6,121 bases of DNA from Octopus sinensis (taxonomy: Eukaryota), in assembly GCF_006345805.1 (NCBI RefSeq), contig NW_021829443.1, positions 1 to 6,121 of the forward strand. The letters are read 5' to 3'. Below are positions 1,275 to 1,669 of the stretch, one piece after another. The notes beneath the pieces were generated by a model. That model was not told where the DNA came from. It worked only from the letters and a program-made list of their open reading frames with translations, and did not search any database. A program made the translations under genes and the position numbers. Positions within the stretch are counted from its first letter, which is position 1. Each line of letters starts with the position of its first letter.

Positions 1275-1322
1275 AAAATCTGTTACTAGGAGTTTTCACG
1301 TTCCCGTTCGTCGGACAGTTTT
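1275..1322 (-). ncRNA. Second, slightly damaged copy of the same hammerhead motif on the opposite strand
   Basis: Minus strand reads AAAACTGT CCGACGA ACG-ggaa-CGT GAAAaCTCCTAGTA ACAGaTTTT. Stem II is perfect, but there is an extra A after GAAA and a stem III mismatch. Confidence 0.6.
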
Positions 1323-1324
1323 AT

Positions 1325-1383
1325 TTTAACAAAACTGTCCGACGAACGGGTATGTGAAACTCCGAGTAACAGCTTTTGTTGAA
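1325..1383 (+). ncRNA. Putative minimal type I hammerhead ribozyme (core variant CCGACGA)
   Basis: Stem I AACAAAACTGT 1328-1338 / ACAG-c-TTTTGTT 1369-1380. Core CCGACGA 1339-1345. Stem II ACG-ggta-TGT 1346-1355. GAAA 1356-1359. Short stem III ACTC-c-GAGT 1359-1367. GUA cleavage triplet 1366-1368. Confidence 0.7.
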
Positions 1384-1472
1384 TTTCTGCTGCTTTAAAT
1401 AAAGCATTTTACTCTACCACTGGTATTTGAGTACTCTTTTTTCCACCTTGTTTCACATTTATGCGTTTACTC

Positions 1473-1475
<3 letters not shown>

Positions 1476-1530
<55 letters not shown>
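1476..1530. repeat. (TA)n microsatellite
   Basis: Perfect TA run of about 27 units. Confidence 0.97.
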
Positions 1531-1533
<3 letters not shown>

Positions 1534-1568
1534 TAATATAATATGGAAGTTAACGCAGATGTAAACAA

Positions 1569-1669
1569 GTATTTTTACTTTCGACACATGTTTCAAAATT
1601 CCACTGATACTATTCAAAAGATAAATGGTTTAAACAATGCAATCTTCTCCTCGGGAAAGTGAAAAATAC
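1569..1669 (-). ncRNA. Putative type I hammerhead ribozyme of a second Penelope-like family (core variant CCGAGGA)
   Basis: Minus strand: GTATTTTTcACTTTC CCGAGGA g AAGATTGCATTG [28-nt loop] CAGTGGAATTTT GAAAC ATGT GTC GAAAGTAAAAATAC. This gives a 14-bp stem I with one bulge, a ~12-bp stem II with GU pairs and one mismatch, a palindromic ACATGT stem III and a GUC triplet at 1585-1583. Confidence 0.68.

Follow-up and report, generated by a model that had tools for sequence, protein, structure and literature searches.

A recurrent C4 core variant in hammerhead motifs of two Penelope-like families of Octopus sinensis

The 6,121-nt stretch of Octopus sinensis DNA analysed here (the window) holds three hammerhead motifs with the same departure from the core consensus, which raises the question whether the change is a state of the elements that carry them or an accident of three copies. 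The core strings claimed in an earlier note on this DNA are all in place, namely CCGACGA at 1339-1345 (+), CCGACGA at 1314-1308 (-) and CCGAGGA at 1654-1648 (-). Against the consensus C3-U4-G5-A6-N7-G8-A9, each has C at position 4 (C4 in place of U4) and canonical letters elsewhere. The bare heptamer is a weak signal, as the window contains 14 CNGANGA strings, counting both strands, and four of them are CCGANGA (the fourth at 1769-1775). All three flagged motifs have a full type I context, that is, stem I, core, stem II, GAAA, a stem III strand and an NUH site (GUA at 1366-1368 in motif 1; GUA ending at 1284 on the minus strand in motif 2; GUC ending at 1583 on the minus strand in motif 3), and their stems I and II are pairable in this layout.

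Motif 1 (1331-1372, +; C4 at 1340) is composed of an extendable stem I (1335-1338/1369-1372), a 3-bp stem II, GAAA at 1356-1359 and a palindromic stem III strand at 1359-1367, with the predicted cut after A1368. Motif 2 (1280-1322, -; C4 at 1313) has the stem II ACG-GGAA-CGT, an extra A within GAAA and a broken stem III palindrome, and judging from these letters it is likely dead. Motif 3 (1571-1666, -; C4 at 1653) shows a long stem II, GAAA at 1594-1591 and the palindromic ACATGT, with the predicted cut after C1583; this copy lacks C11.1 and carries G7, a core found in 1 of the first 100 matches listed for its family. The conserved G12-A13-A14, A15.1-U16.1 and NUH are present in motifs 1 and 3, and in motif 2 with the extra A. 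The computed stem III self-duplex energies are -7.8, -6.0 and -3.4 kcal/mol for motifs 1, 3 and 2, respectively. In eight copies, both U4 and C4, the hammerhead fold was never the predicted minimum-energy monomer fold, and the minimum-energy folds did not separate C4 from U4 copies. The Rfam hammerhead models accounted for 0 of 47 matches in the window and 0 of 92 across four U4 and four C4 loci; they are blind to U4 loci too, so the miss in the window is not due to C4. The expectation that standard searches overlook C4 is therefore true by definition of literal CUGANGA descriptors, which would miss about a fifth of such motifs in this genome, but it does not explain the behavior of Rfam. We conclude that the three cores are a variant core inside minimal type I hammerhead motifs.

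A close examination of the surroundings identified two insertions. Motifs 1 and 2 are the two arms of a single fold-back (1247-1476) with (TA)n target repeat on both sides (1214-1243 to the left; 1477-1530 to the right, separating the two insertions). BLAST to other loci of the family, here called A, assigns the inverted arm (1247-1325, -) as a pseudo-LTR end without tail, and the direct arm (1326-1476, +) consists of a pseudo-LTR end and a ~70-nt tail (1407-1476), which is found on the right arm only. An inverted copy with a one-sided tail is a Penelope-like trait, and the same arrangement was observed at many other loci. The second insertion (1531-1716, -) is a stub of another family, B, that is 5'-truncated 54 nt upstream of its hammerhead and carries the flanking letters diagnostic of a C4 subfamily. 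At many family A loci (among them L137, L140, L141, L144, L148 and L152) the insertion is a very short fold-back that turns inside the hammerhead or immediately 5' of it, suggesting that the stem I hairpin favors folding back as the RNA is reverse transcribed.

The two motif-bearing families are numerous, with 1,201 (A) and 677 (B) exact pattern matches and none for the reversed controls. Longer copies have a reverse transcriptase frame followed by a C-terminal GIY-YIG frame upstream of the hammerhead, as read by eye from their motifs, and neither element protein has a match in Pfam. In family A, copy L133 has an open frame of 723 aa (protein P0001) with RWK, DKT and CxCX5C all present, and the C4 copy L073 contains a 344-aa stretch 81% identical to it. 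Protein frames of family B (copy L074 and others) have DKT, with RWL replacing RWK and no CxCX5C seen. These motifs, together with the (TA)n insertion observed in both families, can be compared with the Hydra-clade features described by Craig et al. (2021, PMC8557442): read by eye, family A possesses the full set and its protein resembles Hydra-1_Obim; family B is better classed as Hydra-like only. The A and B proteins are 40% identical over 452 aa, which bears out the claim that the third motif belongs to a different family from the fold-back pair. The 3' UTR between stop codon and hammerhead also differs among A copies, being ~1,000 nt in L133, a U4 copy, and ~330 nt in L073.

Position 4 in family A was examined with a window-type (GGAA loop) pattern that leaves positions 4, 5 and 7 open. 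Among its 1,201 matches, U4 (T-G at positions 4-5) is found in 98 (8%) and C-A in 69; these are the two products of CpG decay and their numbers are close, and C4 is present in 87 of the first 100 matches listed. The small excess of T over C-A may include a minor U4 subgroup (copies L062 and L072). A sister subfamily with a GCAA loop gives 2,740 matches and is the largest A subfamily sampled, the two totals being only roughly comparable as the patterns are of unequal length; its first 100 matches listed comprise 97 U4, 2 G4 and 1 C4. In an alignment of 111 of 113 copies, the two main GGAA groups have a pairwise non-CpG diversity outside the motif of 14.3% and 5.7%, compared with 4.5-4.6% for the C4 GCAA groups and 4.1% for the U4 GCAA group. 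A midpoint-rooted tree, built with the motif excluded from the 20 copies that reach far enough upstream, places the GGAA and GCAA lineages 19-33% apart and nests six U4 GCAA copies among C4 copies (support 99/97), a nesting that depends on two C4 GCAA copies. Combined with U4 in 26 of 26 Hydra rows of the published motif table (all CTGA; 34 rows in all, with no C4; PMC8557442), this makes one old gain of C4, followed by reversion to U4, the likely simplest history of the family. A contig-run comparison showing no difference at 1340 was not used, given that the known differences at 1351 and 1353 were absent from it as well. Along the subfamily series of A, the closing pair of stem II was seen to drift from A-U through A-G to A-A.

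Family B has a different balance, with U4 in 283 of 677 pattern matches (42%) and, among the first 100 listed, 57 C4, 42 U4 and 1 A4. An alignment of 104 motifs revealed that the state of position 4 is linked to flanking letters, and the window copy has those of the C4 type. Of 102 aligned copies, the 45 that extend 395 nt or more upstream were placed in a tree (position 4 within the alignment), in which one branch (97/93) parts 27 C4 from 18 U4 copies. Diversity amounts to 4.7% and 2.6% within the U4 groups and to 1.9% in each of the two C4 groups, one of which (C4A7) is enriched for top-scoring matches and thereby lowered in its value. The single split and the lower diversity make it likely that C4 in family B is derived and more recent. 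In the youngest C4 subgroup the stem III palindrome is perfect and A17 is the usual letter, so that NUH is kept; the 10.1-11.1 pair is weaker and one stem I pair has been lost. The alignments revealed no compensating change that the C4 subfamilies of the two families have in common. In contigs of other organism codes, where depth is not equal to copy number, U4 accounts for 36% (X16) and 38% (X19) of the summed depth at the B site, and none was found in X7 and X10, in which cover is low. First-pass tallies of top BLAST matches (C4 in 41 of 43 and 32 of 34 motif rows) were discarded as query-biased and misleading for B.

The 2.72-billion-base genome was also searched with a generic pattern for short stems, under which family B does not fall, and with a reversed-pattern control. 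U4 motifs number 38,947 (control 3,698) and C4 motifs 11,481 (control 3,412), so that after subtraction C4 makes up ~19% of the total and U4 about four fifths. Genome-wide, neither U4A/U4G motifs (7,962 against 11,096 in the control) nor G5A motifs (5,506 against 7,453) exceed their controls, which makes the tolerance look specific to C, with the proviso that the searches require a core and other broken-core subfamilies would escape them, that U4R and G5A are the changes counted and that the controls are rough. In the original viroid work, U4A and U4G were reportedly inactive. Beyond family A, the C4 list holds at least two further repeat families with full stems (L173-L182 and L189-L191), and in the family that dominates the U4 list, C4 copies appear by eye to be just scattered. 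The position is thus recurrent and specific in its C4 state, and it is not lineage-wide.

The earlier note had proposed a lineage-wide natural variant instead of random decay, and the two halves of this proposal fare differently. C4 is natural at the level of subfamilies, with 98 U4 against 69 mirror CpG changes in the 1,201 A matches and with the state found in two families. Its spread to the whole lineage is contradicted by the U4 majority in the genome, by the U4 state of the largest sampled A subfamily and by the Hydra rows. The count of C against T that the note had suggested, with T as family consensus taken to indicate simple mutation, was run: T is not the consensus of the GGAA form of A, and in B the objection holds in part, U4 being confined there to separate subfamilies.

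Some of the rows in these lists deserve a separate mention. L173-L188 belong to an older repeat family whose hammerhead has a 7-bp stem II, an AGCT palindrome and (TA)n ends; by eye, 8 C4 and 7 U4 copies of it were counted in the first 7 Mb of C1. L189-L191 are copies of another repeat family, in which the hammerhead is C4 and has a stem I of 6-8 bp. Two recurring strings, one U4A-like (6 among the first 100 rows listed) and one G5A-like (8 among the first 100 listed), were rejected as candidates, because by eye neither has a stem II flush with GAAA.

Constraint on the motif was estimated from one pair of family A copies, L133 (U4) and L073 (C4). They differ at 21 of 87 fourfold sites (~24%) and 23 of 89 upstream UTR sites, and at none of 10 other core sites or 18 paired stem sites (P ~0.0004 for the two sets together, ~0.06 for the core sites alone). 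The 3' flank beyond the motif is conserved as well (2 of 26 sites differ), so the constraint, or part of it, may reflect protein binding and not catalysis.

At a probability of roughly 0.6, we take the three motifs to be minimal type I hammerheads at the truncated ends of two Hydra-like Penelope families, in which C4 is subfamily-wide and the ribozyme is likely slower and still working. U4 would be the ancestral state, with C4 gained separately in A and B and kept in A across lineages now 25-30% apart, and the GCAA/U4 subfamily of A would be a reversion that CpG mutability could ease. Two motifs would pair through the palindromic stem III, likely aided by the element's own protein, and would be cut after position 17. 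U4C should weaken the U-turn, and as reverse transcription likely uses uncut RNA, a weaker U-turn would cost little; selection would then remove lethal core changes and be nearly blind to U4C. C4 is likely nearly neutral for transposition and would slow the cut without stopping the spread. Tuned-down or protein-assisted cleavage, as the earlier note had envisaged, is plausible from the literature.

A doubtful alternative, which we still take seriously, is that C4 motifs no longer cut and that the fold is kept as a protein-binding or reverse transcription start signal, C4 being the first step of catalytic erosion. Insertion in vitro is unaffected by catalytic mutants of a related element (PMC11167929), Naiad elements spread without canonical hammerheads (PMC8557442), the 3' flank is as conserved as the motif, and the weakened 10.1-11.1 pair and stem I of the youngest B C4 subgroup fit erosion; however, the other core letters of A are fixed across lineages ~24% apart at fourfold sites, U4 was likely regained in A, G5A and U4A/G show no genome-wide excess, and U4C is the one change known to leave some activity in natural RNAs, as described in the viroid papers considered below. 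The opposite idea, that C4 is selected because slow cutting spares template RNA or because a protein restores full speed, so that position 4 acts as an adaptive dial, would be in line with the recurrence of C4 not only in A and B but in no fewer than two other repeat families, with its being the youngest state in B and with its retention in spite of the CpG that it creates. We nevertheless consider the idea improbable, since U4 outnumbers C4 about four to one genome-wide, the most numerous sampled A subfamily has U4, and a history of both gains and losses suits near-neutrality.

The idea that a U4 family gave rise to the three copies, and that C4 arose in them by mutation once they were inserted, is very hard to maintain. 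Sporadic C4 does occur, as in B copy L102, which has U4-subfamily flanking letters, and in the single C4 among the first 100 listed of A's U4 subfamily, and the window B core (C4 with G7) is rare; yet C4 is present in 87 of the first 100 A-type matches listed and the window B copy carries C4-subfamily flanking letters, so that the idea is refuted for A by the copy counts and for the window B copy by the linked sites. Position 4 could also be a two-state evolutionary switch, in which a C4 ribozyme is almost silent by itself and is activated solely by the protein of its element, CpG allows it to flip back to U4 and the state sets the level of uncut template. This is speculative and we think it unlikely; if true, the matched U4/C4 sister subfamilies of this one genome, with one gain and one loss, would make it directly testable.

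The elements closely resemble known ones. In the account of Hydra-clade elements by Craig et al. (2021, PMC8557442), the hammerheads are likewise of type I near the 3' end with an odd palindromic stem III, the targets are (TA)n, the tail is one-sided and an inverted truncated copy occurs; the stem I and stem III letters of Hydra-2_aMil are identical to those of family A. The pseudo-LTR hammerheads of metazoan Penelope-like elements (Cervera and De la Peña 2014, PMC4209133) share the short palindromic helix III, the presumed dimer activity, the mostly solitary truncated copies and the opposite-strand pairs. They differ in having U3-A8 as core variant and CUGANGAH as consensus, with no C4 seen in the portions of text and supplement covered. 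Cleavage by motifs with such a short palindromic stem III is described as likely dimeric and weak (PMC4209133, PMC6765202). The element Poseidon of Anolis, PAc (Frangieh et al. 2024, PMC11167929), is comparable in its hammerhead, tail signature and AT-rich targets; it belongs to another clade and its activity was measured, whereas the octopus motifs are known from sequence alone. According to the parts of that paper covered, its hammerhead needs the element's protein, dead mutants still insert in vitro and no RNA reads end at the cut site.

The U4C change itself has precedents in viroid-like RNAs, which limits how surprising it is here. CCGA occurs in peach latent mosaic viroid, a citrus-associated viroid-like RNA, zeta viruses and betaviroid-like RNAs (PMC3088659, PMC9608096, bioRxiv 10.64898/2026.09.16.752053). 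In the sections covered, U4C is described as lowering hammerhead activity in vitro while still supporting viroid infectivity (PMC3088659), self-cleavage of the same mutant is described elsewhere as unaffected (PMC9608096), and low activity is described for a type III hammerhead when one letter of its CUGA turn is changed (PMC9901934). The core change is thus the same and compatible with replication; there, however, it concerns sequence variants or just one of the two ribozymes that a circular RNA replicon carries, of type III where stated, and in the octopus it is a retrotransposon subfamily state with hundreds to thousands of genomic copies and likely reversion. No report of a C4 core in Penelope-like elements was found in the literature covered (text, the Hydra motif table and part of the PMC4209133 supplement, with figures and Lünse et al. 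2017 outside this scope), and the covered parts of bioRxiv 10.64898/2026.07.22.740005, PMC3376415 and PMC2837043 contain nothing on U4C. The present analysis contributes the apparent gain of C4 in family B, a likely reversion in family A and the controls for U4R and G5A. We regard C4 as a real core variant of known Penelope-like hammerheads, fixed within subfamilies, recurrent and likely reversible. Cleavage in these elements is weak and, in the one reconstituted system, dispensable; U4/C4 sister subfamilies in two families, changing in opposite directions, provide a natural test of catalytic rate against transposition, and so of why the hammerhead is kept.

A few other parts of the window were also noticed. 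The AT-rich region 1730-2460, with short open frames, adjoins the family B stub; two of its frames have no Pfam match and tblastn with the family A protein gave no match there. A dispersed repeat of ~260 nt is represented by five partial copies at 1-170, 652-883 (+) and 3416-3971 (-), which are 84-99% alike and of which two lie in tandem. We presume that this repeat is akin to a tRNA-derived cephalopod SINE. Long degenerate (ATT)n and (TA)n microsatellites occupy 4320-5150 and 5620-6060.
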